Source: a virus. From it: a stretch of DNA of 64,000 nt. Position 1 is the stretch's first letter, and each line of letters opens with the position of its first letter. Positions 17,445 through 63,431 of the stretch are shown here, one piece after another. The position numbers were made by a program, and so were the translations under genes. Under the pieces are notes generated by a model that was not told the origin of the DNA, made no database searches, and worked only from the letters and a program-made list of their open reading frames with translations. The stretch is from the IMG/VR virus record IMGVR_UViG_3300028840_006907, positions 64,001 through 128,000 of that record. One strand, written 5' to 3'.

Positions 17445-17600
17445 TCAATCGTTTTTATCAATCTCCGTGGCTAATACCGACATAAATGACATTCCGGTTC
17501 CTCCTGGTAATTCAATAATAGAAGGTCTTTTGATGTTCTCTTCTAAATTCCTAGAAGCGAGTTGCCAAGAATAGGCTTTTATAGTTTTTGTATTATTCAT
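17445..17600 (-). CDS. micro-ORF (51 aa) between cas6e and helicase
   Basis: GGAGAT 8 nt upstream of ATG at 17600; no known motif. Confidence 0.25.
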   Translation of the reverse strand: MNNTKTIKAYSWQLASRNLEENIKRPSIIELPGGTGMSFMSVLATEIDKND

Positions 17601-17628
17601 TTTAAAATCTCCATATAAAAGGTTTATT

Positions 17629-18910: not shown

Positions 18911-18933
18911 AATATTATAACTCCTGGTAACAA

Positions 18934-20019
18934 TTAGAAATCGATGAATTTAATAAGTTCGTTAAGTGATCCTTCTTTTGTGAGTACATTCAAGATCCTA
19001 TAATCCATTTCATGGTAACATGAATCAAAACTACTTTTCATGTCAAGAAGGGCTTTGACAGCATTTTCCATAACCGCAGGACCTTTAATAGGAGTATGGA
19101 AGGCTTGACAGAGACTTCGTGGGGCAGTTGGAGCTTTTTCGATCATAACGAATGCTGGCCATGTTTGACTATCAGCACATCTGTTTTTATTAGCTGAGGG
19201 GGATGAAGTGGTTAATACTTCGACTATCTGTCGGATGGTTTTGATAGCTAGTTCTTTATTACCTTGAAGATTTTTCGTTAAGAGCTTGGAATTGATTACA
19301 AAGAAACTATAATAGACACCCTGGGTAAAATAGAAATTATCTAGGTGACCTGAACCTTTGGTTCCTTCTAATCCAAGGTTATCGGTAGCTGTAAAATAGT
19401 CGGTTTGGACAGATCCTATATCATTGACAGTAAAAGCGAAATTTGAGGACAGTGAAGCTTCAACATCATATTGGGGCAGTTTTGCAATCATGCGACCGGT
19501 AAGGGCTGTTCTGATTCCTGTATTTTCTTTTAAAAAGAAGAATTCTTGATCAGTGGGTTTATGCCCCTCAATAATTTTGTCAATCAGTTCTTCAATATGT
19601 TGTCTTTCGCTCGGTTGAATTTTAATGGTTTCGGTTTTAAGAAGATCAACCTTTTTTTTCTTTTTCTTTGTATTTTTATCATCTTCTTTTTCAGTGTGCT
19701 TTTTGATATCAACAAAAGTACCAATAAATTTAAATGCGTATTCTTCAGCTTTTTTAGGTGATATTCCACCATCAATTAATCTTTTCTCGACATATTTTCC
19801 AATAAGAGGAGTCTGAAGACCTATATCGATTTCGCACCTTTCAAATAGAGCCTTGTTTAAATCATATTTTCGATTTTGTGAAGACGAATAACCTCGGTTG
19901 GTATCATTAAGTTTCATTGTTTTAGGACGTCCGTCCTGGCCTCGGTTTATGCTAGATACAGCTACACCAGTGAGAAGGTGAATTAACCAGTAGGGGTCTT
20001 TAATAATAGTTTTAGACAT
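18934..20019 (-). CDS. cas7e: Cas7e (CasC) backbone subunit
   Basis: 361 aa; N-terminal SSINRGQDG...SSQ pattern like Cas7e SxLNRDD...SSQ. Confidence 0.75.
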   Translation of the reverse strand: MSKTIIKDPYWLIHLLTGVAVSSINRGQDGRPKTMKLNDTNRGYSSSQNRKYDLNKALFERCEIDIGLQTPLIGKYVEKRLIDGGISPKKAEEYAFKFIGTFVDIKKHTEKEDDKNTKKKKKKVDLLKTETIKIQPSERQHIEELIDKIIEGHKPTDQEFFFLKENTGIRTALTGRMIAKLPQYDVEASLSSNFAFTVNDIGSVQTDYFTATDNLGLEGTKGSGHLDNFYFTQGVYYSFFVINSKLLTKNLQGNKELAIKTIRQIVEVLTTSSPSANKNRCADSQTWPAFVMIEKAPTAPRSLCQAFHTPIKGPAVMENAVKALLDMKSSFDSCYHEMDYRILNVLTKEGSLNELIKFIDF

Positions 20020-20045
20020 AAATACTCCTTGATATTTATTATTTA

Positions 20046-21989
20046 TTATATGTTATTTGAATATTCTCTTTCCCAGTAGAACTTGACATCTTTGCTCCAG
20101 TGGGCATACCCTTCCATGAAACTGATGATGTTAAATCCTTCCATTCGAGAAACAACATCAGCAAATACTTTCCAGTTTTTTTGTATATCCGTTTTATTGA
20201 AACTCATCATTTCGTCAACATGTCGGCGGTTAATTTTTTGAGAACCCATTTGGGCACCGAAAGATTGAGAAAAATCCAGATCCTTAGCTTTAAAAACAAT
20301 TAGTAGAAGAGGTACGAAAAGAGTCTTCATATCTTCTGATCTTAAAGCAGGGAAATGCATAGACATTTCTAAAATAAAATTCAAATAAAGGTCTTCATGT
20401 TTTAAGATATCGATGTCAAAACATCGGGTAAATACCCTATGTTTTTCTGTATTTCTAATAGTCCCGTACCAGGACAGGAATGGTTTGGTAAAGACCTGGT
20501 TAAAATGAGGTAGGTTTAATTTCCTGTATTCGATATGGGCGAAATTCTCATATTCTAATGGTTGTAGTTTAAGAGGTTTAACAACTTTTTTATTTAAGGT
20601 TTCGATAAATTGTTCCTTAAAATATTTCTGTAAACCTCTCTTTTCAGTACCTACATTTTTTTCAAATGTATCGAAAGCTTTAACTACCATCTTTTCCAAC
20701 CATTTTTCGATATTATGATTCTTGAGAACTTCATAGAAGTATTCTTCAGTTTCTGTCAGAAATTCGTGAAATATTAAAGGTTCGGTTTTATCAGTTCCCC
20801 AGAACTTTCTTATATAATTACAGGTATACCATCCTATAAGATATGAGTGTTCTCTGATATTTAAAGTAAACGCACTATCTTTATAGAGTTCTTCTGGGAT
20901 ATCGAATTTATTTTCCTCCCATCCAAAGAGTTTGGCTTTAGCCATATTATAACCGAAAGTCCATAATCCGAAATCAGTTATTCCAAGATATTCTCGGTTC
21001 TCCATGAAATGACTCACCACTAAAGCTGGAGTTAATTTTTTAGCTGGTAGTAGATAGGTCACAAGATCGAGATGGCTGGTAAAGTCCAGGGGTTTCCGGA
21101 AACCTGTTTCTTTGCCTTTTATAATGGGTGAAAGGATATGACGTGGTTTGACATAACAGTTACCATAATTCCTCGTTTTTATCTTTCTAACCATTAATTT
21201 GGAATGATTGCCACAGATAGTACATGATTCATCAAATTTATCAAAGATAAGATGAATACGTAGAGGCATTTCCCAGAGCGGGTAATAAGGATTCATCTCA
21301 TCCAGGGAAACAGTAGCTTTGTTTTTACTATCAACGGTATCACTAAGCCATGGGAGTGTTACACCTTTTGGATTTCCTCCGAATTCAAACATGGTCTTTT
21401 TAATAATAACATTAGACCATATTGTTTCCCATAACGTGGAACCGGTAATAATAGTGGTAAGAGAACCATTGGCACCGGCTGTTATCGAAGTACGGTATCC
21501 TTGGCCTCCCATAATGGCACTGAGTTGATTAAGATAAAGGGCAATTGTAGCACAGGATTGGCAAAAAGTATGTATCTTTGCTTTTTGGAAGAAATCTTTA
21601 CCAGCTTTAATTGTCGCTGTCCCTGGAGTATCAAAGAGGAGATTACCAACATTTACGATTCTTTCAAGGTCCTGTGGCCGTTTATCCTGTAAAAAACGAG
21701 GACCTTTGCCATCTAGTTCAAAGAGTTTTGGTTTAAGTTTTTCTAGGATGGCTTTTTGGTTTGGTGCTTTTTTGAATAGTTTTTTCCATTCTTTCTTACT
21801 TGTAGGAGCAAGATAAGTGTTGAAAAAACCTATGAGAAGCCGTACACCTACAGCATTGAAATCGGGTCTACCGAAATCGAGAGCTATTATAGGGTTATTA
21901 GGTTTTGAAGTTATTTTGTAGGGTGGAATGTTTTCCCTGGTACCGTCTTTTCGGATGACGGGGATCCAAGGGTCCTTAATTACATTCAT
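20046..21989 (-). CDS. cas8e: Cas8e (Cse1) large subunit with about 145-aa C-terminal extension
   Basis: MNVIKDPWIPV and CQSCATIALY match Cse1 DNWIPV and CGGCTAIALF; GGAGGT RBS. Confidence 0.8.
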   Translation of the reverse strand: MNVIKDPWIPVIRKDGTRENIPPYKITSKPNNPIIALDFGRPDFNAVGVRLLIGFFNTYLAPTSKKEWKKLFKKAPNQKAILEKLKPKLFELDGKGPRFLQDKRPQDLERIVNVGNLLFDTPGTATIKAGKDFFQKAKIHTFCQSCATIALYLNQLSAIMGGQGYRTSITAGANGSLTTIITGSTLWETIWSNVIIKKTMFEFGGNPKGVTLPWLSDTVDSKNKATVSLDEMNPYYPLWEMPLRIHLIFDKFDESCTICGNHSKLMVRKIKTRNYGNCYVKPRHILSPIIKGKETGFRKPLDFTSHLDLVTYLLPAKKLTPALVVSHFMENREYLGITDFGLWTFGYNMAKAKLFGWEENKFDIPEELYKDSAFTLNIREHSYLIGWYTCNYIRKFWGTDKTEPLIFHEFLTETEEYFYEVLKNHNIEKWLEKMVVKAFDTFEKNVGTEKRGLQKYFKEQFIETLNKKVVKPLKLQPLEYENFAHIEYRKLNLPHFNQVFTKPFLSWYGTIRNTEKHRVFTRCFDIDILKHEDLYLNFILEMSMHFPALRSEDMKTLFVPLLLIVFKAKDLDFSQSFGAQMGSQKINRRHVDEMMSFNKTDIQKNWKVFADVVSRMEGFNIISFMEGYAHWSKDVKFYWEREYSNNI

Positions 21990-29102: not shown

Positions 29103-29312
29103 CTATTTCAACATTTTAAAATGCTTAAAGGTATCCCAAAAGAAATTTATTGTACATATGATAAAATAGCCAGGTATCAATTTTAATAAGAGTTCTTTTT
29201 TTGTTTTATATTCTCCTAACCATAAATGCCCAAGAACAACAGTCCATTGCATTAATAAAAAATTCGCTATTACAAATAATACCCATACTAATCCTATAGA
29301 CATACTTACCAC
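29103..29312 (-). CDS. small membrane protein
   Basis: 69 aa, hydrophobic. Confidence 0.3.
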   Translation of the reverse strand: MVSMSIGLVWVLFVIANFLLMQWTVVLGHLWLGEYKTKKELLLKLIPGYFIICTINFFWDTFKHFKMLK

Positions 29313-30025
29313 ATTTCCCCAATGGCCTTTTTCTGTTTATTGGTTAATTTATAAACCAGCTTGCAATTAATACATTTCATTCTAGTTATATTCCCAAATA
29401 TATCATAAAGATCATCAGTTACCTTTCCAATCTTGTGACAAGAGTTTTGCTCACCTGCAGAAATGGTCCCATCGATATTAACTGATGGAGTGCACATTTT
29501 ACCCATCATTGCAAGACCCATCATAACTTGTGAAAGAGAGTTCGCCCCTGAATTTCGGCATAAGGATCTAAGGTTAAAACAATTAGGTGCTTTAGAGGTT
29601 ATTGGAAGTTCATTTTTAATGGCTCTTCCAAAGGGTGTTATCACTCTAAGCTGATGCTCATATGTAATATTAGGATGTTGTATAATAGGTACTTCTTTTG
29701 GATAGTACCGAGGATCATTGGTAATTTGAATATTTATTCCAATTTGAATGATTTCTTTTTTTAATGTTTCATCTTCAAGAAAAGTACCATTCGATAAAAG
29801 TGCTGGCATCAAACCTATATTTTTGGCTCTATTAATCATTTCAATAATGTCTGGATGTGAAGTTGGCTCTCCGCCTGTAAGCATTATTATAGGCATTTCA
29901 AGATTTTTTAAATATCGCAATGTCTGGTCATATGTTTTAAGATCCATATGTTCACCTTCCGGACATGCATTCACTGAACAATGAATGCAATTCATATGGC
30001 ATTTTTCAGTGACTCTTACGAGCAT
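29306..30025 (-). CDS. radical SAM protein
   Basis: CHMNCIHC (CxxxCxxC) near N-terminus, Gly-rich LTGGEP. Confidence 0.6.
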   Translation of the reverse strand: MLVRVTEKCHMNCIHCSVNACPEGEHMDLKTYDQTLRYLKNLEMPIIMLTGGEPTSHPDIIEMINRAKNIGLMPALLSNGTFLEDETLKKEIIQIGINIQITNDPRYYPKEVPIIQHPNITYEHQLRVITPFGRAIKNELPITSKAPNCFNLRSLCRNSGANSLSQVMMGLAMMGKMCTPSVNIDGTISAGEQNSCHKIGKVTDDLYDIFGNITRMKCINCKLVYKLTNKQKKAIGEMW

Positions 30026-31316: not shown

Positions 31317-32270
31317 TTATTCCTTAAAATAAAATTTAGATTTTAAATTATCGTAAGCACTCCAATTACCTTCAATAATACGATTAGTATATATAGTACT
31401 TAGATTGTATTCAGAGTCGATTATATCAGCTTTAGATAAAAGTATAGCTTCAGGAGTCATCGGGACTACTGCAGCCCCTAAATCCAGAGAACCGTGATGA
31501 CTTAATATTAAATGACCTAATATTTTTTTCATTCGGTTTCTTTCTTCCGGAGGAGCTTCTAATGCGTTTATGATTGGTATAATATTAGTATAACTTAAAT
31601 TGAGATGACTATGCAATCGTCCTATATCAGTCATTTCAATAGTCAAGTCATATGTATAGGAAAACATTTTTCCGTGATCATGAAGAAAAGCTCCCATGCA
31701 AATGATAGAAGGATCTATTGGATAAATATAACAGAAAGAGGAACAGATCTTCGTTACACATAAAGTATGCTCTAATAGACCGTGTAGATAAGCGTGATGG
31801 ACGTTACCCTTTCCTCCAGGGCACATTTTAAATTTATGCACAAATGTTTCATTATTTTTAAATTTATCCCAGAGATCTCTCATATATTTATTTTTAACTT
31901 TATCATCCATTATTTGAACTAGTTCAACCCACATTTCATCGGGATCATGTGGTGAAGTAGGAAGGAAATCTACAGGATTATAAGGATTTGTTTCTTCAAT
32001 TGAAGATACAATGATTTGATTCTGACCTTGATATACATTAACTTTCCCTTGAATACGACAAACTTTAGCATTTTTAACTATTTCGTAATAAGTATCTGCA
32101 TGATTGAAAGCGGTTGCTGCTATCTGTCCTTTTTTATCTCTCAACTCAAAAGTTAGAAAATTACCTTTTGAAGCGTTTTTGAATGGTCTTAGTGAAGCGT
32201 CTGCTATAACGAAGATTCCATCTATATCTGTTCCACTACTCAATGTTAATATATCTGCTGTGTTTACCAT
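31317..32270 (-). CDS. OB-fold plus HD-domain nuclease (YhaM-like)
   Basis: HHAYLHGLLEHT and FLHDHGK HD-domain motifs after an OB-fold-like N-terminus. Confidence 0.55.
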   Translation of the reverse strand: MVNTADILTLSSGTDIDGIFVIADASLRPFKNASKGNFLTFELRDKKGQIAATAFNHADTYYEIVKNAKVCRIQGKVNVYQGQNQIIVSSIEETNPYNPVDFLPTSPHDPDEMWVELVQIMDDKVKNKYMRDLWDKFKNNETFVHKFKMCPGGKGNVHHAYLHGLLEHTLCVTKICSSFCYIYPIDPSIICMGAFLHDHGKMFSYTYDLTIEMTDIGRLHSHLNLSYTNIIPIINALEAPPEERNRMKKILGHLILSHHGSLDLGAAVVPMTPEAILLSKADIIDSEYNLSTIYTNRIIEGNWSAYDNLKSKFYFKE

Positions 32271-34425: not shown

Positions 34426-34502
34426 TGGTACCCCAATCAGGACTCTAACCTGAAATCTTTGGCTCCGGAAACCAACGCTTTATACAATTAAGCTATTGGG
34501 GC
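34426..34502 (-). tRNA. tRNA-Arg (anticodon CCG), CCA encoded
   Basis: Hand-folded cloverleaf: GCCCCAA/TTGGGGT acceptor, loop TTCCGGA, atypical T-loop. Confidence 0.5.
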
Positions 34503-34511
34503 ATTATAAGA

Positions 34512-34586
34512 TGGCGGTGCGTAAGGGAATCGAACCCTTGCCAGGAGATCGACAGTCTCCGGTCCTAACCACTGAACGAACGCACC
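34512..34586 (-). tRNA. tRNA-Asp (anticodon GTC), CCA encoded
   Basis: GGTGCGT/ACGCACC acceptor, loop CTGTCGA, T-arm GGTTCGATTCC. Confidence 0.7.
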
Positions 34587-34595
34587 GTATTTTTA

Positions 34596-34760
34596 TTAAT
34601 CAATTTTTTTATTTCCGATAAAAAGACCGCAGTCGCATTGCCGAGCCATTTTCGTTTTATTCTTTATTACAATGCCTATTGCTTTAATAGGCTTTTTACA
34701 AGTGTTGCAAATATTTTGCTGTGTCTTTTTGTCATGCTGTTTCACTGCTGTTTTAGCCAT
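34596..34760 (-). CDS. micro zinc-ribbon protein (54 aa)
   Basis: Hand-translated MAKTAVKQHDKK...CNTCKK...CDCG; AAGGAG RBS. Confidence 0.35.
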   Translation of the reverse strand: MAKTAVKQHDKKTQQNICNTCKKPIKAIGIVIKNKTKMARQCDCGLFIGNKKID

Positions 34761-34782
34761 TACTTGTACTCCTTAAATGTTA

Positions 34783-34856
34783 TGGCAGGGACGGTCAGAT
34801 TCGAACTGACATCGCCGGTTTTGGAGACCGGGTGCTTGACCGTTAGCGACGCCCCT
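34783..34856 (-). tRNA. tRNA-Trp (anticodon CCA), CCA encoded
   Basis: Loop CTCCAAA, T-arm GTCAG TTCGAAT CTGAC. Confidence 0.65.
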
Positions 34857-34871
34857 GTATTGACAAATTTT

Positions 34872-35045
34872 TCATGATTTGAACCATTCACTACAACCTT
34901 CGGCTAGTTCTAATAAATGAACACAAGGTTTTGTTTCTTTTGCCAGAACACAGCCACACACTGTACAAATTACCACAGCAGGTTTCAAATCATGTTTCTC
35001 AATTTCAGCGAATGCTTTCACTATATCATTCACTATATCATTCAT
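34872..35045 (-). CDS. micro Cys-rich protein (57 aa)
   Basis: Hand-translated MNDIVNDIVKAF...CTVCGC... Confidence 0.3.
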   Translation of the reverse strand: MNDIVNDIVKAFAEIEKHDLKPAVVICTVCGCVLAKETKPCVHLLELAEGCSEWFKS

Positions 35046-35062
35046 TTTTTCTCCGAATTATC

Positions 35063-35135
35063 TGGGCGCAGACGGACTTGAACCGCCCACGAATGGCTTA
35101 TGAGACCACTACTCTACCGACTGAGTTATACGCCC
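35063..35135 (-). tRNA. tRNA-Met (anticodon CAT)
   Basis: GGGCGTA acceptor, loop CTCATAA, T-loop TTCAAGT; no CCA. Confidence 0.65.
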
Positions 35136-35143
35136 TTGACTTA

Positions 35144-35221
35144 TGGCACACCCGGCACGATTTGAACGTGCGACTTCTTCGTTCGTGGCGAAGATCTCTA
35201 TCCGGACTGAGTTACGGGTGC
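35144..35221 (-). tRNA. tRNA-Arg (anticodon ACG), CCA encoded
   Basis: Loop CCACGAA, T-arm CACG TTCAAAT CGTG. Confidence 0.6.
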
Positions 35222-35227
35222 GTATTT

Positions 35228-35728
35228 TTATAAAAAAGTTTTATACGTTTTTTTATTAATGATATATGATAATGTTGATTTTGCTGATTTATATTCCTTT
35301 GCTAATTTATTTAAACTTTCTCCATTTTTATTTCTGTTAATTATAGATTCTATCTCTTTTTTTGTGAATTTTCTTAATTTATACGCAGCTTTAACTGCTT
35401 GCTCTTTTCTTTCTTTTTCAGGTATATCAAATGAATTCTCTGATCTTGTACCAATTGATATATTAGAATCATTGAAATTTAATCTATTTCTATCTAAGTG
35501 TCTAGTCTCAATCCCTTCTTCAAAAACTTTATCCCCAAATAAAAAGTATGCTTTTAATTTATGTACTTTTAAATTTTTAATCTTTTTGTTTACATAGATA
35601 TTTATGGTAGGGTAACCTTTTGAATAATGGAATCTTAAAGGTTTTCCCATTGGCCCAATAACTTCATTTTTATCATTAAAATGATATCCTTTTTTTACAG
35701 CTATTTTTAAGACATCATTATTTTTCAT
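35228..35728 (-). CDS. HNH-family homing endonuclease
   Basis: Phage HNH-like GYHFNDKNEVIGPMGKPLRFH block and C-terminal helix-turn-helix; sits inside the tRNA cluster. Confidence 0.5.
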   Translation of the reverse strand: MKNNDVLKIAVKKGYHFNDKNEVIGPMGKPLRFHYSKGYPTINIYVNKKIKNLKVHKLKAYFLFGDKVFEEGIETRHLDRNRLNFNDSNISIGTRSENSFDIPEKERKEQAVKAAYKLRKFTKKEIESIINRNKNGESLNKLAKEYKSAKSTLSYIINKKTYKTFL

Positions 35729-35748
35729 ATATTAATTTTTCTTTCTAA

Positions 35749-35821
35749 TAGGGGTACGGGGAGTCGAACCCCGGTCGTGGGAGAGAAAATCCCATATCCT
35801 AAGCCATTAGAAGATACCCCC
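35749..35821 (-). tRNA. tRNA, anticodon probably TTC (Glu), atypical position 37
   Basis: GGGGGTA acceptor, T-arm CGGGG TTCGACT CCCCG, loop TTTTCTC. Confidence 0.5.
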
Positions 35822-35866
35822 ATAAAATAAAAAAGCTCCTGTCTGGTTCTCACCCGACAGGAGCTT
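35822..35866 (-). terminator. rho-independent terminator-like hairpin
   Basis: 10-bp stem AGCTCCTGTC/GACAGGAGCT followed on the minus strand by TTTTTTATTTT. Confidence 0.55.
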
Positions 35867-39495: not shown

Positions 39496-39852
39496 TTATG
39501 TTTTTTTGGCTGGAAAACCTAAATATGTAAGTTTCCAATCTAATTTTTGAGTCCATCCTTTTTCGATGGCTATATTTCTTGCTTCTTTTCTTGTCCTTGC
39601 TTGAATAACTTTAAAAAAATCTTTACGTGCAGGTACAGTAAAAAGAAAGAGAGGGGGATTTCCGTTAGGCATCTCCACTTTTGGAAGATGTTGATCTTTA
39701 GAGAAAATCCTCTCTATAGTTGTTACCCGATACCCACACTTTGGATTGGTACATAATCTCCTTCGCCTAGTGACATAAGGAGTTTTACAACGTGAATCTA
39801 TTACTTGAGTAGCACTCTCACATTGAGGGCATTTAAATTTTGTATGTGTCAT
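39496..39852 (-). CDS. NrdR-like zinc-ribbon regulator without ATP-cone
   Basis: [16 protein letters not shown]...TRRRRLC...RVTTIERI matches NrdR N-terminal zinc ribbon. Confidence 0.5.
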
Positions 39853-40726
39853 CTATACTTTGTTCCGCTATATTTAACAAATATTTTCCGTAATTATTCT
39901 TTTCCATTGGTAGAGCTAGGTTCATTAATTGCCCCTCATTTATATAACCATTTCGGTATGCTATCTCTTCAGGAGAAGAAATGATCAGTCCTTGTCTGGT
40001 TTGTATAGCTTCTACAAACTGGGAAGCTTGCATCATGGATTCATGTGTACCCGTATCAAGCCATGCTACTCCTCGGCCAAGAAGTTCTACTTTCAATAAT
40101 TCTTTTTCAAGATAAATCTGGTTAAGGCTAGTTATTTCAAGTTCTCCTCTGGGGGAGGGTTTTACCTGATGAGCGTATTCCACAACATTTTCATCATAGC
40201 AATATAAACCGGTAACAGCATAGTTTGATTTTGGATATTTGGGTTTCTCTTCAATACTAATGGCTCTTCCGTGTCCATTAAATTCTACAACTCCATATCT
40301 TTGGGGATCTGTGACTTGGTAACCGAAAACAGTAGCACCATGATTAAGTGTTACTGATTTTCGGAGTTTATCAATGAATTTATGACCCCAGAATATATTG
40401 TCTCCTAAAATGAGTGTCGTAGGTGAATCCATGGCAAAATCAGCCCCGACAAGAAAGGCTTGAGCCAGCCCTTCAGGTTTAGGTTGTATTACATAAGAGA
40501 AGGACAGCCCCAATTTATGGCCATCTCCGAGTAATCGTTTATACGACTCTATATCCTGGGGTGTTGATATTATGAGAATTTCTCTAATTCCTGCAAGCAT
40601 TAGTATTGATAGAGGATAATATATCATCGGCTTATCGTATATAGGAATTAACTGTTTGCTTATTCCTATAGTAGCTGGATAGAGCCTAGTCCCTGATCCT
40701 CCGGCAAGGATAATACCTTTTACCAT
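39833..40726 (-). CDS. rmlA: glucose-1-phosphate thymidylyltransferase
   Basis: [19 protein letters not shown]...[16 protein letters not shown]-terminus. Confidence 0.85.
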
Positions 40727-46654: not shown

Positions 46655-47758
46655 ATGAAATTGTTTGTTACCGGTGGAGCAGGATTTATAGGAGCTAATT
46701 TCGTAAATTATTGGATTCAGAAACACCCCAATGACTATGTTACTGTTTTTGATAAATTAACGTATGCAGGGAATCTTAGTAGTTTATCAAAAGTAATGAA
46801 ACATCCTCATTTTAAATTCATTCGTGGGGATATTTTAGATTATAATTTATTATGCAAATCATTGAAAGAAGTAAGTACAGTTGTTCATTTCGCTGCGGAA
46901 TCCCATGTGGATCGGTCTCTTTCGGGATATGAAGCAGAGATGTTGTTTAATCGAACTAATTTGGATGGTACTATCACGCTTCTTCATGCTTGTTCTTTAA
47001 TGGATGTTGAGAGATTTCATCATGTCTCTACAGATGAGGTATATGGTGATTTAGGATATGATGATAAGCCATTTAATGAGAAATCACCCTATAATCCCCA
47101 TAACCCTTATGCTATAAGTAAAGCTGCGGCTGATTTTGCGGTTAGAGGATTTTCCCGTAGTCATGGGTTGGTATATACTATAAGTAATTGTACCAATAAT
47201 TATGGTAAATACCAAACCCCAGAAAAAATTATCCCTCGATCTATATGTCTTTTATTGCAGGATAAAAAGATTGAACTCTATACCGATGAACTAGGAAATC
47301 CAGGGACGAATATTCGAGATTGGATTTTTGTAGAAGATCATTGTAGGGCAATTGAGAAGATCCTTTTATATGGGAAAAATGGAGAAACTTATTGTATTGG
47401 TGGTAATTGTGAGCTAAAAAATATCGAATTGGTTAAAAAGATTTTAGCAATTATGTCAAAATTATTGGGTAAAACCTTTTTTGTTGAAAATAATGTCAAA
47501 CTAGTTAAAGACAGACCCGGGCATGATTTAAGATATGCTATGGATATTGAGAAGATTTCTTCTGAGTTGGACTGGATCCCTAAGCATTCATTTAATGAGG
47601 CATTTGAGTTAACCGTAAAGTGGTATTTATCAGAAGAAGGACAACAGTGGTTAAAATCAGTTGAAAAAACTTCTGGGGAAGTGAGAAAAGATCAGAGTAA
47701 AAAACATAAGAAGAGTTTTGATCTAAAGAATAAATTCAGCCATATTTTCAAACAGTAG
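46655..47758 (+). CDS. rmlB: dTDP-glucose 4,6-dehydratase
   Basis: MKLFVTGGAGFIGANFVNYW Rossmann N-terminus, YAISKAAAD catalytic YxxxK. Confidence 0.85.
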   Translation: MKLFVTGGAGFIGANFVNYWIQKHPNDYVTVFDKLTYAGNLSSLSKVMKHPHFKFIRGDILDYNLLCKSLKEVSTVVHFAAESHVDRSLSGYEAEMLFNRTNLDGTITLLHACSLMDVERFHHVSTDEVYGDLGYDDKPFNEKSPYNPHNPYAISKAAADFAVRGFSRSHGLVYTISNCTNNYGKYQTPEKIIPRSICLLLQDKKIELYTDELGNPGTNIRDWIFVEDHCRAIEKILLYGKNGETYCIGGNCELKNIELVKKILAIMSKLLGKTFFVENNVKLVKDRPGHDLRYAMDIEKISSELDWIPKHSFNEAFELTVKWYLSEEGQQWLKSVEKTSGEVRKDQSKKHKKSFDLKNKFSHIFKQ

Positions 47759-47760
47759 AA

Positions 47761-47800
47761 GTTGGCCTCTCCTATAAGAAGAGGCCAACCATTCTTTAAG
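47761..47800 (+). terminator. rho-independent terminator-like hairpin after rmlB
   Basis: Perfect 10-bp stem GTTGGCCTCT/AGAGGCCAAC then CATTCTTTAAG. Confidence 0.5.
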
Positions 47801-47872
47801 TGGTATACACAACTTAAAGAGCGGTCCTTCATGTTAACGTAGGTAATTTTCTCTGTAAGTTGTTGATTTATA

Positions 47873-48282
47873 TGGAGGTGAGGAGAGTTGAACTCCTGTC
47901 CGCGAAGGTATCTTGAGTAAACCTCTACATGTTTAGTCTATGGTTTAAATCTTATTCATAATCACGTTCACAGACAAACTTAATTAAGAACCAGTCTCTA
48001 GTCTCATTCATTGGTCAAGACTCCTCAATGAACCAGAACCCGTTTGGCTATCCGGAATTAACAGGGTTCAGTTAAAACCGGATTTGTCGTTTTTTGTTTA
48101 AACGACGGCTTCTTCTGCTTGATGAATAGCAGCAAGGTTAAGTGCTGAAAACATCGCACAGAAGTTAACTGTATTAGTTTTTTCAGTTATTATTGAAATC
48201 GGCTTTTTTACGAGGCCAACCGATTAACCTCGACATGCAGTTTACATTTCAACTCATCACGTCGAAAACCAAGTACACCCCC
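47873..48282 (-). ncRNA. ssrA: tmRNA (SsrA)
   Basis: Minus strand starts GGGGGUGUACUUGGUUUUCGACG, has GCAUGUCGAGG...GGUUGGCCUCGUAAAAAAGCCG, ends GGACAGGAGUUCAACUCUCCUCACCUCCA; 620-bp ORF-free gap. Confidence 0.65.
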
Positions 48283-48382
48283 AGAATTATCAAAGAACTA
48301 TTAATAGTATAAACTATTTCAATGAAAATATCAAATGTTTTTATCTTTATAAGGCTGTTTTTTAATTAGACTAAATACTAAT

Positions 48383-52523: not shown

Positions 52524-53405
52524 TTATTTGTCTATATAGTGATAGCCCATTTTCTCCCACTGCTCTCTGAATTGAATAGCTTCATATTCTATCCCTAATA
52601 AATTTATTAGTATCTTTTCACTCTTTTTTGTTTTTTGTTGAATAGCTTGTTTAGTGATTTTATAAGAGTTAGCTAATTCTTCAAAAGTCCATTTACCTTT
52701 ATTATCCAAATTATACCGATGGATAATAATATTTTGTTGTTGTTCATTTAAATAGTTTTTTATGACTCTTCGAATGATAACATCTATTTCCGAATTCTCA
52801 TATTCTTTTCCGGTTAAGTAATGTTCATCAAGATCAGGTATATTATTTATTAGAAGGATGTCTTCAATTTCATTTCCATTACCTATGGGTTCATAGAGAG
52901 ATTCAACTTTTAATAATTTAAATCTCAATTTTTCCTTTTCTGTATATCTAATGTGAGGCATGTATTTTGTAATTATATTCTTTCTCGCTATTGGTGGTAT
53001 CATACTCATTATAAAAGTGGTCTCTTTATAAGCTGGGTTATAGCATTTACTTGAATGGGTGAGAATAGTAAGATTGATTTCATTTATAATATCCTGATAT
53101 TCTACTCCACCTTGTAAAGAGGTATATATCTTCTTTGCTATATTCACGACTATTCCTTCGTGTTTGGCTGGATCTATACGGTATATCTGTCGTATTAAAA
53201 TTTCTTTTCCTTTTATGGATGGTGAAGGTCTTTCTTTAAAGAGGCGGTATTCAGCTATTTTATTTTTTATTTGTTTAATTCCCGCTTTTTTGGCTGTCTT
53301 TTCATCGGTACAATTTGTTACTACTGCTGTGAATACTCTTTTGGAACCACTGAGATTTAATTTATCAGCTTTACCTTGTAATTTTACCTTAACTTCAAAT
53401 AGCAT
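52524..53405 (-). CDS. sigma-70-family-like factor
   Basis: C-terminal TFEELANSYKITKQAIQQ resembles sigma region 4 HTH. Confidence 0.45.
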   Translation of the reverse strand: MLFEVKVKLQGKADKLNLSGSKRVFTAVVTNCTDEKTAKKAGIKQIKNKIAEYRLFKERPSPSIKGKEILIRQIYRIDPAKHEGIVVNIAKKIYTSLQGGVEYQDIINEINLTILTHSSKCYNPAYKETTFIMSMIPPIARKNIITKYMPHIRYTEKEKLRFKLLKVESLYEPIGNGNEIEDILLINNIPDLDEHYLTGKEYENSEIDVIIRRVIKNYLNEQQQNIIIHRYNLDNKGKWTFEELANSYKITKQAIQQKTKKSEKILINLLGIEYEAIQFREQWEKMGYHYIDK

Positions 53406-53794: not shown

Positions 53795-53868
53795 GCCGGA
53801 ATAGCTCAGTTGGCCAGAGCGGTTGATTTGTAATCAATTCGTCGGGGGTTCGAATCCCTCTTTCGGCT
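53795..53868 (+). tRNA. tRNA-Thr (anticodon TGT)
   Basis: GCCGGAA/TTTCGGC acceptor, loop TTTGTAA, T-arm GGGGG TTCGAAT CCCTC. Confidence 0.65.
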
Positions 53869-53934
53869 TGTAAATTTATTTGGAAAGGAGATGACATGAT
53901 GGCGAAAGTGTGATACTTAAACAAAGGAGCCGTT

Positions 53935-54234
53935 ATGTCTCATCCGAAAAACAAAAGAGAACGTTTTCTTATTGGGAAACGTAAAGGGGAAAAACGTTCT
54001 TATTTGTATTGGAGTGGTTATTCCAATTGGTTTGACCTTCCAGATTATTTCTATAAGAAAAGCCCTCGTAATAAGGGTGTTGAGTATGAGGAGAAAAAGA
54101 GATTACTCGAAAAGAGTAAAGCAATAAGAAGGGATACAACAAAGTTATGCTCTTGTCCTCAGTGTGGAAATCCGCGCAGACATTTTAAAGAGCGTACTTT
54201 ACAAGAAAAAAGATATTTTACTGCGGGGGGCTAG
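53935..54234 (+). CDS. basic zinc-finger protein
   Basis: 99 aa, CSCPQCG motif; 3' end overlaps next tRNA. Confidence 0.45.
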   Translation: MSHPKNKRERFLIGKRKGEKRSYLYWSGYSNWFDLPDYFYKKSPRNKGVEYEEKKRLLEKSKAIRRDTTKLCSCPQCGNPRRHFKERTLQEKRYFTAGG

Positions 54235-54294
54235 GCCTGGTGGTCTGGCAGGTCTCATAAGCCTGCAACTCAAGTTCAATTCTTGGCCCCGCAA
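54222..54294 (+). tRNA. tRNA with CAT anticodon (Met or Ile2)
   Basis: TGCGGGG/CCCCGCA acceptor, loop CTCATAA, T-loop TTCAATT. Confidence 0.5.
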
Positions 54295-54314
54295 ATGCAT
54301 ATAAAGGGGAAATA

Positions 54315-54683
54315 ATGGGAATGGATATACATGAGTGTTTTGAATATAAATTAAAATCATTTAATGAAATGGTTGCAAAGATCAATGAGAAACCGAAAGA
54401 AGATGAAGAGATCGATCTTGATAAACCTTATATCAGTCAATGGGATCATTTTGAGAGCTTCTTGAGGGAATTAATCTCTGATGATCACAGTCGGTTTAAA
54501 AGTGCTATTTTATGGCTTTTCTTTGCTGATGAAGAATTAGAGTTGCATGAAAAGATGAAAAACTTGTTTAACATATTAACAGATTTTGACGATAAACAAT
54601 TGATCTCTATGGTTTATGATTCGGGTTGTGATCGAGTGAAAGTTGATTTTGATAAATCGGAAAGTATAATTCATATGGAATAA
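54315..54683 (+). CDS. hypothetical acidic protein
   Basis: 122-aa ORF. Confidence 0.45.
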   Translation: MGMDIHECFEYKLKSFNEMVAKINEKPKEDEEIDLDKPYISQWDHFESFLRELISDDHSRFKSAILWLFFADEELELHEKMKNLFNILTDFDDKQLISMVYDSGCDRVKVDFDKSESIIHME

Positions 54684-54689
54684 AAATGG

Positions 54690-54765
54690 GGGCCGGAATG
54701 TTCCAAGGGGGCGAGAATGCCTTGCAAGCAATCTGCGGTGAGTTCGATTCTCACTCGGTCCACCA
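54690..54765 (+). tRNA. tRNA-Ala (anticodon TGC), CCA encoded
   Basis: G3-U70 wobble in acceptor stem, loop CTTGCAA, T-arm GTGAG TTCGATT CTCAC. Confidence 0.6.
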
Positions 54766-54919
54766 TAAGTAAAATAACAAAATCTTTCAAAAGGAAGTAG
54801 GCTTAAGAGTAGCCACTTTAATGAGTGATGAAAGGCGATGTGCACACGAATTTCGTGGAGTAGTTATCCGAATAGTCTTTGGTGTAACAACACACCTTTT
54901 GAAAGATTATTAATATAAT

Positions 54920-54994
54920 GCGAGTGTAGTTCAATGGCAGAACCCCACCCTTCCAAGGTGGTTGTTGTGAGTTCAAATCTCATCACTCGCTCCA
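54920..54994 (+). tRNA. tRNA-Gly (anticodon TCC), CCA encoded
   Basis: GCGAGTG/CACTCGC acceptor, loop CTTCCAA. Confidence 0.7.
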
Positions 54995-55001
54995 AATTTA
55001 T

Positions 55002-55076
55002 GCGGTAGTAGCTCAATGGTGGAGTTCCTCTTTGCCAAGGAGGAGGTTATCGGTTCAAGCCCGATCTACCGCTCCA
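55002..55076 (+). tRNA. tRNA-Gly (anticodon GCC), CCA encoded
   Basis: GCGGTAG/CTACCGC acceptor, loop TTGCCAA. Confidence 0.7.
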
Positions 55077-55166
55077 GGTCAAAGGCTCTGGCAGGTTGCC
55101 TTAAATAAAATGGGGTGTGGGTACCTAGGCACTTCTCACATCTCTGCCTGACCTGATTAAATTTAC

Positions 55167-55245
55167 GGGCGCGTAGCCTAGCTGGTTAGGGCACCTGTTT
55201 TACACGCAGGAGATTTCGTAGGTTCAAGTCCTACCGCGCCTACCA
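55167..55245 (+). tRNA. tRNA-Val (anticodon TAC), CCA encoded
   Basis: Loop TTTACAC, T-arm GTAGG TTCAAGT CCTAC; 7-nt variable region. Confidence 0.55.
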
Positions 55246-55253
55246 TAAATCAA

Positions 55254-55328
55254 GCCGGAGTAGCTCAGAGGCAGAGCAACGCTCTCGTAAAGCGTAGGTC
55301 AAGGGTTCAAGTCCCTTTTCCGGCTCCA
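55254..55328 (+). tRNA. tRNA-Thr (anticodon CGT), CCA encoded
   Basis: Stem ACGCT/AGCGT, loop CTCGTAA. Confidence 0.65.
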
Positions 55329-60767: not shown

Positions 60768-60843
60768 GGCTGTCTGACCGATGTGGTAAAGGTGCTGGAC
60801 TGAAAATCCAGAAATTCCGGTTCAATTCCGGAGGCAGCCACCA
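60768..60843 (+). tRNA. tRNA-Phe (anticodon GAA), CCA encoded
   Basis: Stem CTGGA/TCCAG, loop CTGAAAA, T-arm TCCGG TTCAATT CCGGA. Confidence 0.65.
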
Positions 60844-60870
60844 TTAGTAAATTAGTGTTTTTTAATAAAA

Positions 60871-60946
60871 GGGCGTATCGGCAAGCGGTTAAGCCACTAC
60901 TCTGATAAGGTAGCATGCGAAAGTTCAAATCTTTCTACGCCCACCA
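60871..60946 (+). tRNA. tRNA-Ile (anticodon GAT), CCA encoded
   Basis: GGGCGTA/TACGCCC acceptor, loop CTGATAA. Confidence 0.65.
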
Positions 60947-60965
60947 TAAATCTTAGGAGGACAAG

Positions 60966-61732
60966 GTGTTCTGGGTTTTACAAAACAATCTTTTTAATGA
61001 AGTAGGGTTTCAGTCTTTGGTAGGAACTCTGGAAAGGATGAATATAAAACATATCATTGTGAAAGTGGTTCCTTTTGTAGGAGATATAATTCCTGACATA
61101 AACCCGAAGAACCCTGTCATAGCAGTGGGAGCCTATTCCATGTGGAAGGTTGCCAAAAGAAAAGATGGCACCCAGGTGTCTTTGTGAATGAGAATTTTAC
61201 GTATCCGAAATTGATAAAACATTATGGAGACAATCTCTTAAATAAAGAATGCAATATAACTACACTTGAGAATGTTCTCCCGAAATATAACGAATTTTTT
61301 ATAAAACCTTGTAAGGATAGTAAAGTTTTCTCAGGACAAAGGATGACCTGGGTAGAATTTAAAGAGTGGAGAGAAAGAATCTTAGAACTCGGATGGGAGG
61401 GTTCAGTAAAGGGAAGTACCTGTGTAGTACAGGCACCTGTAAAAGAAATCTACCGGGAGTACCGGTTCTTTATAGTGAATGGTAAAGTTGTCACAGGTTC
61501 GCAATACAGAGTAGGAATGCGGGTATTTTCAACGGAATGTCATGAAAAGGATGTAATTGAATATGCTCAACGAATGGTTGATCTCTGGAGTCCGGATGTA
61601 GGTTTTGTCATTGACATAGCACTAACTCCTGAAGGATTCAAAGTTATCGAGATAAACTGTTTAAATGCTTCAGGCTTTTATGCCTGTGATATGAGTAAAG
61701 TAGTTTTTGCATTGGAGAAAATTTATAATTAA
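60966..61732 (+). pseudogene. ATP-grasp-like gene split by a frameshift (or programmed frameshift)
   Basis: ORFs 60966-61187 and 61142-61732 overlap in different frames across the A-run AAAAGAAAAG. Confidence 0.4.
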
Positions 61733-61733
61733 C

Positions 61734-61819
61734 GCAGACGTGCTGGAATGGTAGACAGGCTTGGCTAAGGACCAAGTGTTCGTATGGGCGTGAGAGTTCG
61801 AGTCTCTCCGTCTGCACCA
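61734..61819 (+). tRNA. class II tRNA, anticodon reads AAG (Leu), CCA encoded
   Basis: GCAGACG/CGTCTGC acceptor, stem CTTGG/CCAAG with loop CTAAGGA, long variable arm. Confidence 0.5.
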
Positions 61820-61833
61820 TATAGGAAGTAAAG

Positions 61834-61998
61834 ATGGGCGAATGTAATTGCTGTTATATGACAATGGGAGAACATGCTTTGACTTGCCCTGCGTATAAAA
61901 GGGATAAAAGTCAGCCCTGTGATTGTTGCTATATGACAACAGGAGAACATGCTCTTACTTGCCCACAGTATGAAATTGAAGATAATGAGGAGGATTAA
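61834..61998 (+). CDS. Cys-rich peptide with internal tandem duplication (54 aa)
   Basis: AGGAAG RBS; CNCCYMTMGEHALTCPAY and CDCCYMTTGEHALTCPQY. Confidence 0.45.
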   Translation: MGECNCCYMTMGEHALTCPAYKRDKSQPCDCCYMTTGEHALTCPQYEIEDNEED

Positions 61999-62077
61999 GA
62001 TGGGACTGAACTCATCGTTGTTTAAACGTAAGTGGTTTGTAGATTAAGACCTGAGCCTGAGTGCTACAGGTCTGTAC

Positions 62078-62150
62078 GGGCTTGTGGCCAAGTTGGTAAG
62101 GCTCTTGACTTTTAATCAAGAAATCGTCAGTTCGATCCTGACCAGGCCCA
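62078..62150 (+). tRNA. tRNA-Lys (anticodon TTT)
   Basis: Stem CTTGA/TCAAG, loop CTTTTAA, T-arm GTCAG TTCGATC CTGAC. Confidence 0.65.
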
Positions 62151-62159
62151 TATGTAAAC

Positions 62160-62236
62160 GCTCCCGTAACTCAGTTGGTCAGAGTAGCTGATTCTTAATC
62201 AGCGAGTCGAGTGTTCAAATCACTCCGGGAGTACCA
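62160..62236 (+). tRNA. tRNA-Lys (anticodon CTT), CCA encoded
   Basis: Stem GCTGA/TCAGC, loop TTCTTAA. Confidence 0.6.
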
Positions 62237-62255
62237 TAAGTAAAGTAAATAATTC

Positions 62256-62344
62256 GGAAGGGAGCCAGATATTGGTTAGCTGGGGCTGTCTGCTAAACAG
62301 TTGTTCTATAAGGACTTAGGGTTCAATTCCCTATCCTTCCGCCA
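62256..62344 (+). tRNA. tRNA-Ser (anticodon GCT), CCA encoded
   Basis: Loop CTGCTAA, long variable arm, T-arm TAGGG TTCAATT CCCTA. Confidence 0.6.
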
Positions 62345-62360
62345 TAAAAAGAAGATTAGC

Positions 62361-62603
62361 ATGAAAGATGAAGATGAACTTAAATGGTGTGATGACGATT
62401 GCAAAAATTGTGATGACGATTCAATAATTAAAGAAATACATGCTATTCGGAAGGAACATGCTAAAAGGTTTAATTATGATATAAAAGCTATGGGAGACGA
62501 TCACAAATTAAAACATCCAATCATTGTAGAGATGATGACTGCAAGTAGAAAAGGAGATCATGAAACTGTTAGAAAATTAAGACAAAAGTTGAATTCTATG
62601 TGA
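62361..62603 (+). CDS. hypothetical Cys/Asp-rich protein
   Basis: ORF-track start 62301 overlaps tRNA-Ser; trimmed to ATG at 62361. Confidence 0.4.
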   Translation: MKDEDELKWCDDDCKNCDDDSIIKEIHAIRKEHAKRFNYDIKAMGDDHKLKHPIIVEMMTASRKGDHETVRKLRQKLNSM

Positions 62604-62767
62604 ATGAAAAGATTTTAAAAATGAATATGAAAAAGAAAGAACAGAAAAAGGCAATAAAATGGGGCAGAAGAAAGATATACATAGGAAGAAAAAGATTAAT
62701 GCCCGTAAACGAAAACCGTGTAATCGGGATTGCGAAAACTATAAAAAATTCAAGTGTTAATATATAG

Positions 62768-62845
62768 GGCCGAGTGGTGAAGTTGTTTTAACACGGTAGT
62801 CTGCAAAACTATTATGCGTCGGTTAGAATCCGACCTCGGCCTCCA
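62768..62845 (+). tRNA. tRNA-Cys (anticodon GCA), CCA encoded
   Basis: GGCCGAG/CTCGGCC acceptor, loop CTGCAAA, T-loop TTAGAAT. Confidence 0.55.
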
Positions 62846-62861
62846 GTTCTTTGAAATAAAT

Positions 62862-63061
62862 AAGTATATCGAGTCCACGCGCAGATGTTAAGTCTGTGAG
62901 GAAGCTCAGGACATCACCGCTGACGGAAGGAGACGTAAGTCGTAGGTACTTCCTAGGATGCAACACAAACAGACCTATGCCGGTGAGCGGGGCTATGATG
63001 GTCGGGTTAGTGGCAAAGATAAATGTGGACATAAAACAGAATCCTGGCTACGGATATACTT
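62862..63061 (+). ncRNA. candidate structured RNA with RNase P-like P1/P4 motifs (about 200 nt)
   Basis: No ORF, locally GC-richer; GAGGAAGCUCAGG and ACAGAAUCCUGGCU can pair with a bulged U; terminal helix AAGTATATC/GATATACTT. Confidence 0.3.
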
Positions 63062-63068
63062 ATTATAC

Positions 63069-63175
63069 GGAGAGGTAGGTTTAATTGGTAAAATCAGTGC
63101 TTTGCACAGCACCTAAGCTAGCAAGGTGCCATTCCAGGGATGGATTTCGGGGTTCAAGTCCCCGTCTCTCTGCCA
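63069..63175 (+). other. oversized tRNA-like element (107 nt) with canonical T-arm and CCA end
   Basis: GGAGAGG/TCTCTCT acceptor, D-loop with GG, GCA-anticodon-like loop, 34-nt extra region, T-arm CGGGG TTCAAGT CCCCG. Confidence 0.35.
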
Positions 63176-63186
63176 ATAAATTATAC

Positions 63187-63275
63187 GGAGGTAGACCGGC
63201 TGGACGAGGAGCCTGTCTTGAAAACAGGTAGGGCTGTAAAAGGTCTTCGGGGTTCAAGTCCTCGTGCCTCCGCCA
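63187..63275 (+). tRNA. tRNA-Ser (anticodon TGA), CCA encoded
   Basis: Stem CCTGT/ACAGG, loop CTTGAAA, long variable arm. Confidence 0.6.
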
Positions 63276-63352
63276 TAAAAACAATAGTTATCAAAAGGTA
63301 ACTATAAGTTCTTTGACATTTCGGTTATTATGAAGTAAGCACATATTTATAT

Positions 63353-63431
63353 GGTGAGCGTAGCTTAACTTGGTTAGAGCACTGGATTGTGGTTCCAGGA
63401 GTTGGGGATTCGAGTTCCCTCGCTCACCCCA
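63353..63431 (+). tRNA. tRNA-His (anticodon GTG) with encoded G-1, CCA encoded
   Basis: Extra 5' G opposite discriminator C, stem CTGGA/TCCAG, loop TTGTGGT. Confidence 0.7.

Follow-up and report, generated by a model that had tools for sequence, protein, structure and literature searches.

A complete one-piece tmRNA gene with a long, AVV-ended tag frame on a huge phage-like contig

Positions 64,001 to 128,000 of the viral record IMGVR_UViG_3300028840_006907, a stretch of 64,000 nucleotides (nt) which we call the window, contain a gene for a one-piece transfer-messenger RNA (tmRNA), i.e., an ssrA gene. The gene is located at 47873-48282 on the minus strand and is 410 nt long. That the tmRNA is real and structurally complete was confirmed with ARAGORN, with the Rfam family RF00023 and from the fold of the whole molecule. 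We consider it likely that this is a functional tmRNA of a huge phage, or at least of a phage-like element exceeding 388 kb, and that it acts as tmRNAs do in bacteria. Every feature of sequence and structure by which a tmRNA is defined is found in it; the only failure is the xAA terminus of the tag, which is typical of tmRNAs but does not define them. The sequence is new and without a close relative, and each of its unusual features falls inside the variation that has been published. Genes for tmRNA are already known in big phages, and the sole unusual trait is the long tag of 28 residues which ends in AVV. The interest of the gene is that it is a clean and complete example from a probable phage; tmRNAs are rare in phages. 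Since its tag is without a usable LAA end of the standard type, it also offers a natural test of whether a phage has use for ribosome rescue in which the rescued protein is destroyed, or for rescue in which it is spared.

The tmRNA gene and its structural parts

Only one tmRNA is called by ARAGORN in the window. The call is on the minus strand and has the coordinates 47873-48282, at which a preliminary description of the window had placed a tmRNA. The call also defines the resume codon and the tag: the coding part is nt 99-185 and the tag is EKTNTVNFCAMFSALNLAAIHQAEEAVV followed by a stop codon. The covariance model RF00023 matches over its full length (model positions 1-374 of 374) at 47870-48282 on the minus strand, with 159.9 bits and E = 3.7e-63; the gathering score of this family is 47 bits. 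Compared with shuffled sequences the fold of the whole tmRNA has z = -4.87. A competing protein-coding gene was looked for in the region, and there is none: no open reading frame (ORF) of at least 40 residues overlaps the tmRNA gene, and when the limit is lowered to at least 20 residues only two do, one of 33 residues with a GTG start and one of 39 residues with a TTG start. The preliminary description was wrong in calling the gene the only long ORF-free stretch in the window, because a GC-rich, CRISPR-like array of about 3 kb at 12.0-15.05 kb is free of ORFs too.

In what follows tmRNA nt i corresponds to window position 48283-i. The helices were checked pair by pair through direct complementarity, and the pseudoknots (PK) PK2-PK4 were also taken from the Rfam alignment. 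The parts of the gene outside the tag region, with the candidate signals on either side, are these:

48306-48334, minus strand: candidate sigma-70-like promoter, TTGATA-17 nt-TATACT, agreeing with the consensus at 10 of 12 positions (consensus scan)
48257-48282, minus strand: 5' half of the tRNA-like domain, with the acceptor strand GGGGGUG (nt 1-7), an analogue of the D-loop that contains the conserved GAC, and the first part of helix 2 (nt 22-26)
48197-48232, minus strand: PK1, CGAGG/CCUCG (nt 51-55/68-72) and AAUCGGU/GCCGAUU (nt 58-64/80-86)
48036-48082, minus strand: PK2, UCCGG/CCGGA (nt 201-205/228-232), UUAAC/GUUAA (nt 208-212/221-225) and GAACCC/GGGUUC (nt 214-219/242-247)
47992-48034, minus strand: PK3, GGUUCAUUG/CAAUGAAUG (nt 249-257/270-278, 8 of 9 pairs) and GAGUCU/AGACUG (nt 260-265/286-291, 5 of 6 pairs)
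47943-47992, minus strand: PK4 region (nt 291-340), main stem nt 291-300/321-330 with 8 of 10 pairs
47901-47931, minus strand: 3' strand of helix 2 (nt 352-382), CAUGUA, GUUUAC and UCGCG facing nt 44-49, 38-43 and 22-26, respectively
47873-47897, minus strand: T-arm AGGAG[UUCAACU]CUCCU (nt 386-402), acceptor 3' strand CACCUCC (nt 403-409) and discriminator A410
47760-47790, minus strand: terminator-like hairpin of 14 pairs with a T-rich tail, 83 nt past the 3' end of the tmRNA (consensus scan)

The two strands of the acceptor stem, GGGGGUG and CACCUCC (nt 1-7/403-409), form seven of seven pairs, including G3·U70, in which a U of the 3' strand faces G3. G3·U70 is the identity pair for alanine. 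The tRNA-like domain has no anticodon arm. The T-arm pairs nt 386-390 with nt 398-402 around the loop UUCAACU, and all pairs of helix 2 form (nt 22-26/378-382, 38-43/361-366 and 44-49/352-357), with five of five in helix 2a. The presence of PK2-PK4 between helix 5 and helix 2 is typical of one-piece tmRNAs, in which a single knot can be dispensed with. PK1 has two stems, of 5 and 7 pairs, which occupy nt 51-86 directly upstream of the mRNA-like region. It is formed by the core GCAUGUCGAGG...GGUUGGCCUCGUAAAAAAGCCG which had been noticed in the preliminary description; the close match to E. coli SsrA claimed there for this core was overstated, as the likeness is found at nt 17-83 with 76% identity. 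The T-arm and an acceptor 3' end without encoded CCA had also been seen correctly. The tmRNA ends in CACCUCCA and is followed by UAU, which means that CCA is not encoded after A410 and would have to be added after transcription. Of the tRNAs matched by Rfam in the window, 19 in all and one of them weak, 15 have an encoded CCA and four, like the tmRNA, are without it. The promoter candidate is a pattern match; its -10 hexamer stops 24 nt before the mature 5' end, and this gap suggests a short leader, probably removed by RNase P. The terminator-like hairpin is at the same time located at the end of the convergent plus-strand gene 46655-47758.

The tag reading frame

The region between PK1 and PK2 contains the following features:

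48185-48196, minus strand: single-stranded spacer UCAAUAAUAACU (nt 87-98), in which U94-A95 occupies -5/-4 relative to the resume codon
48098-48184, minus strand: tag reading frame (nt 99-185), with GAA as resume codon, 28 sense codons (EKTNTVNFCAMFSALNLAAIHQAEEAVV) and UAA at 48098-48100
48128-48145, minus strand: ALNLAA, a degron-like internal motif, tag codons 14-19
48112-48164, minus strand: long imperfect hairpin within the tag frame (nt 119-171), from RNAfold
48086-48106, minus strand: helix-5-like terminal hairpin GUCGUUU[AAACAAA]AAACGAC (nt 177-197), stems nt 177-183/191-197 with seven of seven pairs

The frame of the E. coli tag is set by A86, four nt before the resume codon and usually with U85 ahead of it (PMC2481249). 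In the window tmRNA the sequence reads U94 A95 A96 C97 U98 and then G99 A100 A101; a second UA three nt further upstream would choose the same frame. The distance between PK1 and the GAA resume codon equals that between PK1 and the GCA at which the related viral tmRNAs described below resume. In the terminal hairpin, which is present in the minimum-energy fold, the UAA stop codon (nt 183-185) lies at the loop's 5' edge, and the stop codons of tmRNAs are generally found in the loop of helix 5 (PMC1168896). From the U94-A95 ruler, the spacing to PK1 and the stop at a hairpin loop we conclude that the frame of 28 codons is the correct one and that the tag ends in AVV. It is the same frame that the preliminary description had read, i.e., ALNLAA, then IHQAEEAVV and UAA. 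That description had left a choice between an atypical tag end and a different resume frame: the tag end is indeed atypical, with AVV at the terminus and ALNLAA inside, and a different resume frame is rejected by ruler and spacing.

Known resume codons include those for Gly, Asp, Arg, Ser and Glu, the last one in Mycoplasma pulmonis (PMC1168896), and the natural tags published are from 8 to 35 residues long (PMC8012679). A hydrophobic last residue is the rule to which Carsonella is the sole exception (PMC4131195). The AVV end is hydrophobic; the common (L/V/F)AA terminus is absent and LAA occurs solely inside the tag, at residues 17-19. ALNLAA is not at the C-terminus and is therefore without a free carboxylate. 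ClpX needs the free carboxyl end of LAA. In length the tmRNA exceeds tmRNAs of ~356 nt by 54 nt, which corresponds to 18 additional tag codons.

For nt 86-200 RNAfold gives -30.3 kcal/mol (z = -5.35), with the long hairpin nt 119-171 followed by the hairpin that carries the stop codon. There is a mutually exclusive local hairpin at nt 146-171 (CUU-G-CUGCU/AGCAG-AAG with the loop AUUCAUCA), which forms in an isolated fragment of 58 nt. This local hairpin would loop out the three codons after ALNLAA, which is the canonical site of the stop, and the Rfam alignment also puts the helix 5 loop here.

If the tmRNA functions as in bacteria it would be transcribed from its own sigma-70-like promoter, its 5' leader would be trimmed by RNase P, and host enzymes would trim the 3' end and add CCA. 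Alanyl-tRNA synthetase would then charge it with alanine via G3·U70, and together with SmpB, coming from the host or from elsewhere in the phage genome, it would enter ribosomes stalled on broken mRNAs. The ribosome would switch to GAA at nt 99, a position set by U94-A95, read 28 codons while unwinding the long internal hairpin, and terminate on the UAA that the terminal hairpin has in its loop. The rescued proteins would gain 29 residues, A-EKTNTVNFCAMFSALNLAAIHQAEEAVV (the charged Ala plus the 28 coded ones), ending in AVV. What the phage would gain is a pool of ribosomes kept free while it infects, which would agree with the many tRNA genes nearby. The preliminary description had proposed such a role in ribosome rescue during infection; it is plausible, and it fits the literature on huge phages (PMC7162821).

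An alternative model would be that the RNA is never translated and serves as a decoy, soaking up SmpB, alanyl-tRNA synthetase or EF-Tu and in this way blocking trans-translation of the host. Such a role has been proposed for the molecule of mycobacteriophage DS6A, which consists of little beyond the tRNA-like domain; tmRNA is inhibited by molecules of this sort (PMC4131195). The atypical tag would agree with this model, as would the fact that no SmpB is found among the matches listed for the window ORFs. However, a decoy needs the tRNA-like domain only, and the window tmRNA has kept all of PK1-PK4 together with the UA ruler, an open frame and a looped stop. We find it very unlikely that the window tmRNA is an inhibitor of this kind.

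Related viral tmRNAs and the history of the tag

Among the deposited phages (50,697 records) there was no match to the tmRNA with blastn and none to the 16 kb around it with megablast. Scans of IMG/VR with patterns for PK1 at fixed spacing, for the 5' end, for the tag start, for helix 2 plus T-arm and for a neighbouring protein gave nothing like the window tmRNA. A scan of metagenomes by a PK1 pattern found cellular-type tmRNAs only, and it should be noted that this pattern required GCC after the A-run and thus excluded the sister family described in the next paragraph. A resemblance of the tag to the Bacillus-type tag GKTNSFNQNVALAA is not supported, as the pattern designed for it found nothing in IMG/VR.

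The nearest relatives are about 12 uncultivated viral tmRNAs from IMG/VR (loci L148-L150, L152-L156 and L158-L162), which were retrieved with the T-arm/acceptor sequence as an exact 29-mer and with a less strict pattern for PK1, and which lie on contigs of 16-211 kb. The 29-mer of the window tmRNA is identical in seven IMG/VR contigs, and none of the deposited phage genomes carries this sister family. The sister tmRNAs are 432-462 nt long and have Rfam scores of 84-145 bits. Their PK1 is nearly identical to that of the window tmRNA, with which they also have in common the 5' end GGGGGUGUACU..GGUUUCGAC, the 29-nt 3' end, the UA at -5/-4 (in every sister), the spacing of the resume codon and a long structured mRNA-like region. 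G3·U is invariant in nine of nine aligned viral tmRNAs, compensatory changes are found at acceptor pairs 4 and 5, and there are many of them in helix 2 across the viral family.

In the sisters a frame that begins with a GCA at the canonical position stays open over 32-35 codons; its consensus is AEDNTDSILAEAEYIFNNADEFLGGVEEEYLLAA. Of 35 codons 29 vary at the third position, against 14 at the first and 11 at the second, all insertions and deletions are multiples of 3, and the pairwise ratios of nonsynonymous to synonymous substitution rates (dN/dS) are 0.03-0.39. Judged from this pattern the sister tags are translated and under clear coding selection. They are acidic tags of 32-35 residues with an Ala start and an L(L/M)AA end, whereas the window tag has a Glu start, 28 residues and an AVV end, and it does not match the conserved sister tag A(E)DNTDSILAEAE.IFNN...EEYL(L/M)AA. 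We had first read the window tag and the sister tags as co-linear, in-frame homologues; this was dropped when shuffle tests gave no significance (z = 0.2-2.5 for the nucleotide alignment and z ~0 for the protein). PK2-PK4 also align poorly between the window tmRNA and the sisters, and the neighbours of the sister tmRNA genes bear no relation to the genes of the window. By these comparisons the window tmRNA has the scaffold of the sister family and its long mRNA-like region, but not its tag.

About half of the sister tmRNAs are missed by ARAGORN, which makes no call at L152, L155, L156 and L158-L162. For the others it reports the tag as ADEEMLLAA only, which is the last 9 of the 32-35 translated codons. 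These misses and shortened tags make catalogues of phage tmRNA tags obtained with default tools unreliable, and for annotators this by-product may matter more than the tmRNA itself.

Some individual loci of viral tmRNAs deserve mention. At L159 (3844-4078, minus strand) and L160 (2569-2803, plus strand) the T-loop is split by a group I intron of ~235-255 nt (RF00028, 81-83 bits), which is followed by the 3' exon CCCCTCACGTCCA; a reverse-strand ORF is found just downstream. L155 (430-885) and L162 (10531-10987) have an aberrant T-arm, CGGAG[GGCAGCA]CUCCG as opposed to the GUUCAACUC type, together with a changed D-loop region and Rfam scores of ~92 bits. At L151 (2978-3360) the tag given by ARAGORN, ETVDYKLGYSTWW, begins 170 nt into the gene; a frame nearer to PK1, ...NDNNVISADFGKKVALAA followed by two stop codons, looks like the real tag, and there is an overlapping match to the Rfam model of permuted tmRNA with 53 bits.

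Two histories can be imagined for the window tag: an ancestral long tag whose sequence has diverged, or a shorter tag ending in ALNLAA which has been extended by loss of its stop. The second history postulates that the stops in the loop were lost, and that the ribosome now reads nine more codons (IHQAEEAVV) to the next hairpin. The LAA degron would be buried by this, giving ribosome rescue without targeting to ClpXP, which is compatible with a functional RNA. The internal ALNLAA speaks for such a loss; an LAA is present by chance in 7.6% of residue shuffles and in 0.4% of nucleotide shuffles of the frame. Furthermore, CUU GCU GCU forms the 5' arm of the local hairpin, the 8-nt loop of which lies where canonical tmRNAs hold their stops, and with the helix 5 loop set there by the Rfam alignment the region has two successive hairpins instead of the usual one. 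On the other hand, the loop is without a remnant resembling a stop codon, the minimum-energy fold favours the different and longer hairpin nt 119-171, and no close relative was found which could polarise the change. In the nearest viral relatives, moreover, the mRNA-like region is just as long and the translated tag has 32-35 codons, so that a long tag may be the ancestral state. The evidence for a lost stop is suggestive, not decisive, and we regard this history as possible but rather doubtful.

The same features of the tag could be symptoms of decay. In this case the gene would be a pseudogene, a captured tmRNA drifting without selection, and the lack of significant similarity to the sister tags, the non-canonical terminus and the Glu resume codon would all be consequences of drift. 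This is at variance with the rest of the molecule: the RF00023 score of 159.9 bits equals or exceeds the scores of the sisters, taken in this comparison as 84-160 bits, no helix is broken, G3·U70, the GA motifs and the A at -4 are intact, and the promoter match is near consensus. The probability of a decaying gene must on these grounds be considered very small.

A more speculative model, which we think unlikely, is that in some giant-phage tmRNAs the long tag is no longer a simple ClpXP degron and has become a signal specific to the phage. Under this model the strong conservation of the acidic sister tag with its 32-35 residues would reflect a binding partner of its own. If the model were true, burying the LAA end behind nine residues would either uncouple rescue from ClpXP proteolysis or redirect tagged host proteins during infection. 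We know of no functional study of a giant-phage tmRNA.

Genomic context and comparison with known systems

Through a neighbouring protein of 272 residues the window is assigned to the metagenomic contig Ga0180437_10000019 (Joint Genome Institute, JGI, 3300017963), which has a length of 388,651 bp. This protein is shared by six contigs, the longest contig recorded for it measures 469,617 bp, and the tmRNA gene is flanked by ORFans or by ORFs of phage type. In the window 36 PHROG families are matched, and ARAGORN finds 21 tRNA genes in three clusters (34426-35822, 53795-55328 and 60768-63431). An ATP-grasp protein of the R2K clade (61142-61732, plus strand) has homologues with 37-44% identity in many jumbo phages of 300-358 kb, including Ralstonia phage RsoM2USA and phages of Brevundimonas, Erwinia, Serratia and Caulobacter. 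One of these homologues bears the annotation of a ribosomal protein S6 modification enzyme, and the R2K protein may represent another translation-related function. Another window ORF matches gp268 of phage G. As judged from these genes a phage origin of the contig is well supported but not proven, and the phage-like context assumed in the preliminary description holds, though without a virion gene in the window.

It could still be asked whether the tmRNA gene is host DNA, either a bacterial ssrA brought in by misassembly or the attachment-site remnant of a temperate element which integrates into ssrA. In favour of this, ssrA is a common integration site and fragments of it are found in prophages (PMC9004378), and the PK1 of the window tmRNA matches the tmRNAs of Pseudoalteromonas and Psychromonas. 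A scan of genomes by PK1 found it in these two genera, in other Alteromonadales and in one Verrucomicrobiales genome. These cellular tmRNAs are, however, only ~62% identical overall to the window tmRNA and all have tags of 10 residues ending in LAA. With such a low identity and such short tags PK1 says nothing about the host, and we have rejected a host inference based on it. The gene is also of full length, covering the full model, and not a 3' fragment; the same neighbourhood is found on six contigs, and the flanking genes are ORFans or phage-type. An origin from host DNA is in our opinion barely credible.

Several observations weigh against our preferred explanation, a functional tmRNA of a huge phage. 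The usual xAA terminus is missing, and both the promoter and the terminator are pattern matches only. The 28 codons are open by chance in 15% of shuffles, for which reason we rejected the open frame as evidence for the tag, and the +1 frame is open too, for 41 codons. With one sequence of the exact type, selection on the tag frame is not measurable. The 64-kb window is without a recognisable gene for capsid, portal or terminase, which makes a megaplasmid a less likely alternative to a phage but not a negligible one; the contig did not turn up in the scans of IMG/VR, and no family match to SmpB is found among the matches listed for 67 window ORFs. Finally, the ORF upstream of the tmRNA has a sole homologue among 5.8 billion proteins (L002, 77% identity, on a Logan SRR31655986 contig of 2133 bp), and L002 has an ORF of 282 residues in the place of the tmRNA and no tmRNA on the contig. 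The tmRNA locus is thus not conserved even in the nearest known relative, as a different ORF is found there. As evidence from synteny L002 is uninformative, being a contig of 2.1 kb with another ORF at the tmRNA site.

The other features annotated in the window are the following:

6924-7682, plus strand: family 2 glycosyltransferase
7669-9762, plus strand: radical SAM protein of 697 residues, with an inserted intein that carries a LAGLIDADG homing-endonuclease domain
10977-11540, minus strand: sulfotransferase
12000-15050: CRISPR-like array of ~3 kb, GC 0.50, with ~50 palindromic units at a period of 48-62 nt
15128-21989, minus strand: type I-E-like cas genes (Cas3-like helicase, Cas6e, Cas5, Cas7, Cas8e), adjoining the array
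29306-30025, minus strand: second radical SAM protein, uninterrupted
31317-32270, minus strand: OB-fold plus HD-domain protein with the architecture of a YhaM-like nuclease
39833-40726, minus strand: glucose-1-phosphate nucleotidyltransferase-like protein
46655-47758, plus strand: 4,6-dehydratase-like protein, converging on the tmRNA
52524-53405, minus strand: protein weakly resembling a sigma factor (Sigma70 region 4; match to the PHROG 'RNA polymerase sigma factor' with E = 4e-8)

The three units of the array nearest to the cas genes are near-identical 29-30-mers in the style of E. coli type I-E (reverse complement ATGTTCCCCGCCCCTGCGGGGATTCCCCG). Farther away the repeats degenerate into sub-families with covarying stems, CCCCGC/GCGGGG, CCCCGG/CCGGGG, CCCTGC/GCAGGG and CCCCGT/ACGGGG, and the spacers shorten. 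Neither Cas1 nor Cas2 was seen in the window. The ORF of 1514 residues at 2341-6885 (plus strand) has no match in Pfam or PHROG. The glycosyltransferase, the sulfotransferase, the nucleotidyltransferase-like and the 4,6-dehydratase-like protein make up a set of genes for sugar nucleotides and modification. Two NUDIX proteins, an amidase and HNH endonucleases are further genes of the window. In the third tRNA cluster a weak tRNA-like Rfam match at 63069-63172 (104 nt, 30.1 bits), followed by CCA and not called by ARAGORN, may be a tRNA with an insertion.

When compared with known systems, the window tmRNA has the design of an E. coli-type SsrA (RF00023): a tRNA-like domain with G3·U70, helix 2, PK1, the UA ruler, a looped stop and PK2-PK4. 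It differs in its length, 410 nt as opposed to ~355-363 nt for a bacterial one-piece tmRNA, in resuming at a codon for Glu instead of Ala, and in a tag of 28 residues with AVV at the end where E. coli has 10 residues and LAA. It also has an extra hairpin in the mRNA-like region and no encoded CCA, and the nucleotide identity is found in the section given above only. Tags of mycoplasmas are read by Lon rather than by ClpXP. The tmRNAs of Mycoplasma provide precedents for a long tag, for an end other than LAA and, in M. pulmonis, for resumption at Glu (PMC1168896); they differ in being cellular genes from an unrelated lineage.

Phage tmRNAs have been described in Bxz1-type mycobacteriophages and in Bacillus phage G (PMC4131195), and a survey found tmRNA in 402 of 18,146 phage genomes, i.e., ~2% (PMC9004378). 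Huge phages carry tmRNAs alongside SmpB (PMC7162821). The tmRNAs of Melnitz and of pelagimyophages are of a marine, two-piece form, whereas the window tmRNA is one-piece; its tag is longer than that of phage G, and it is without nucleotide similarity to the deposited phage genomes searched. The likeness to the known phage tmRNAs lies in a complete ssrA on a large genome of lytic type, rich in tRNAs and translation genes. Ends other than LAA occur among them as well, since the phage G tag AKLNITNNELQVA is also without an LAA end (PMC12484599).

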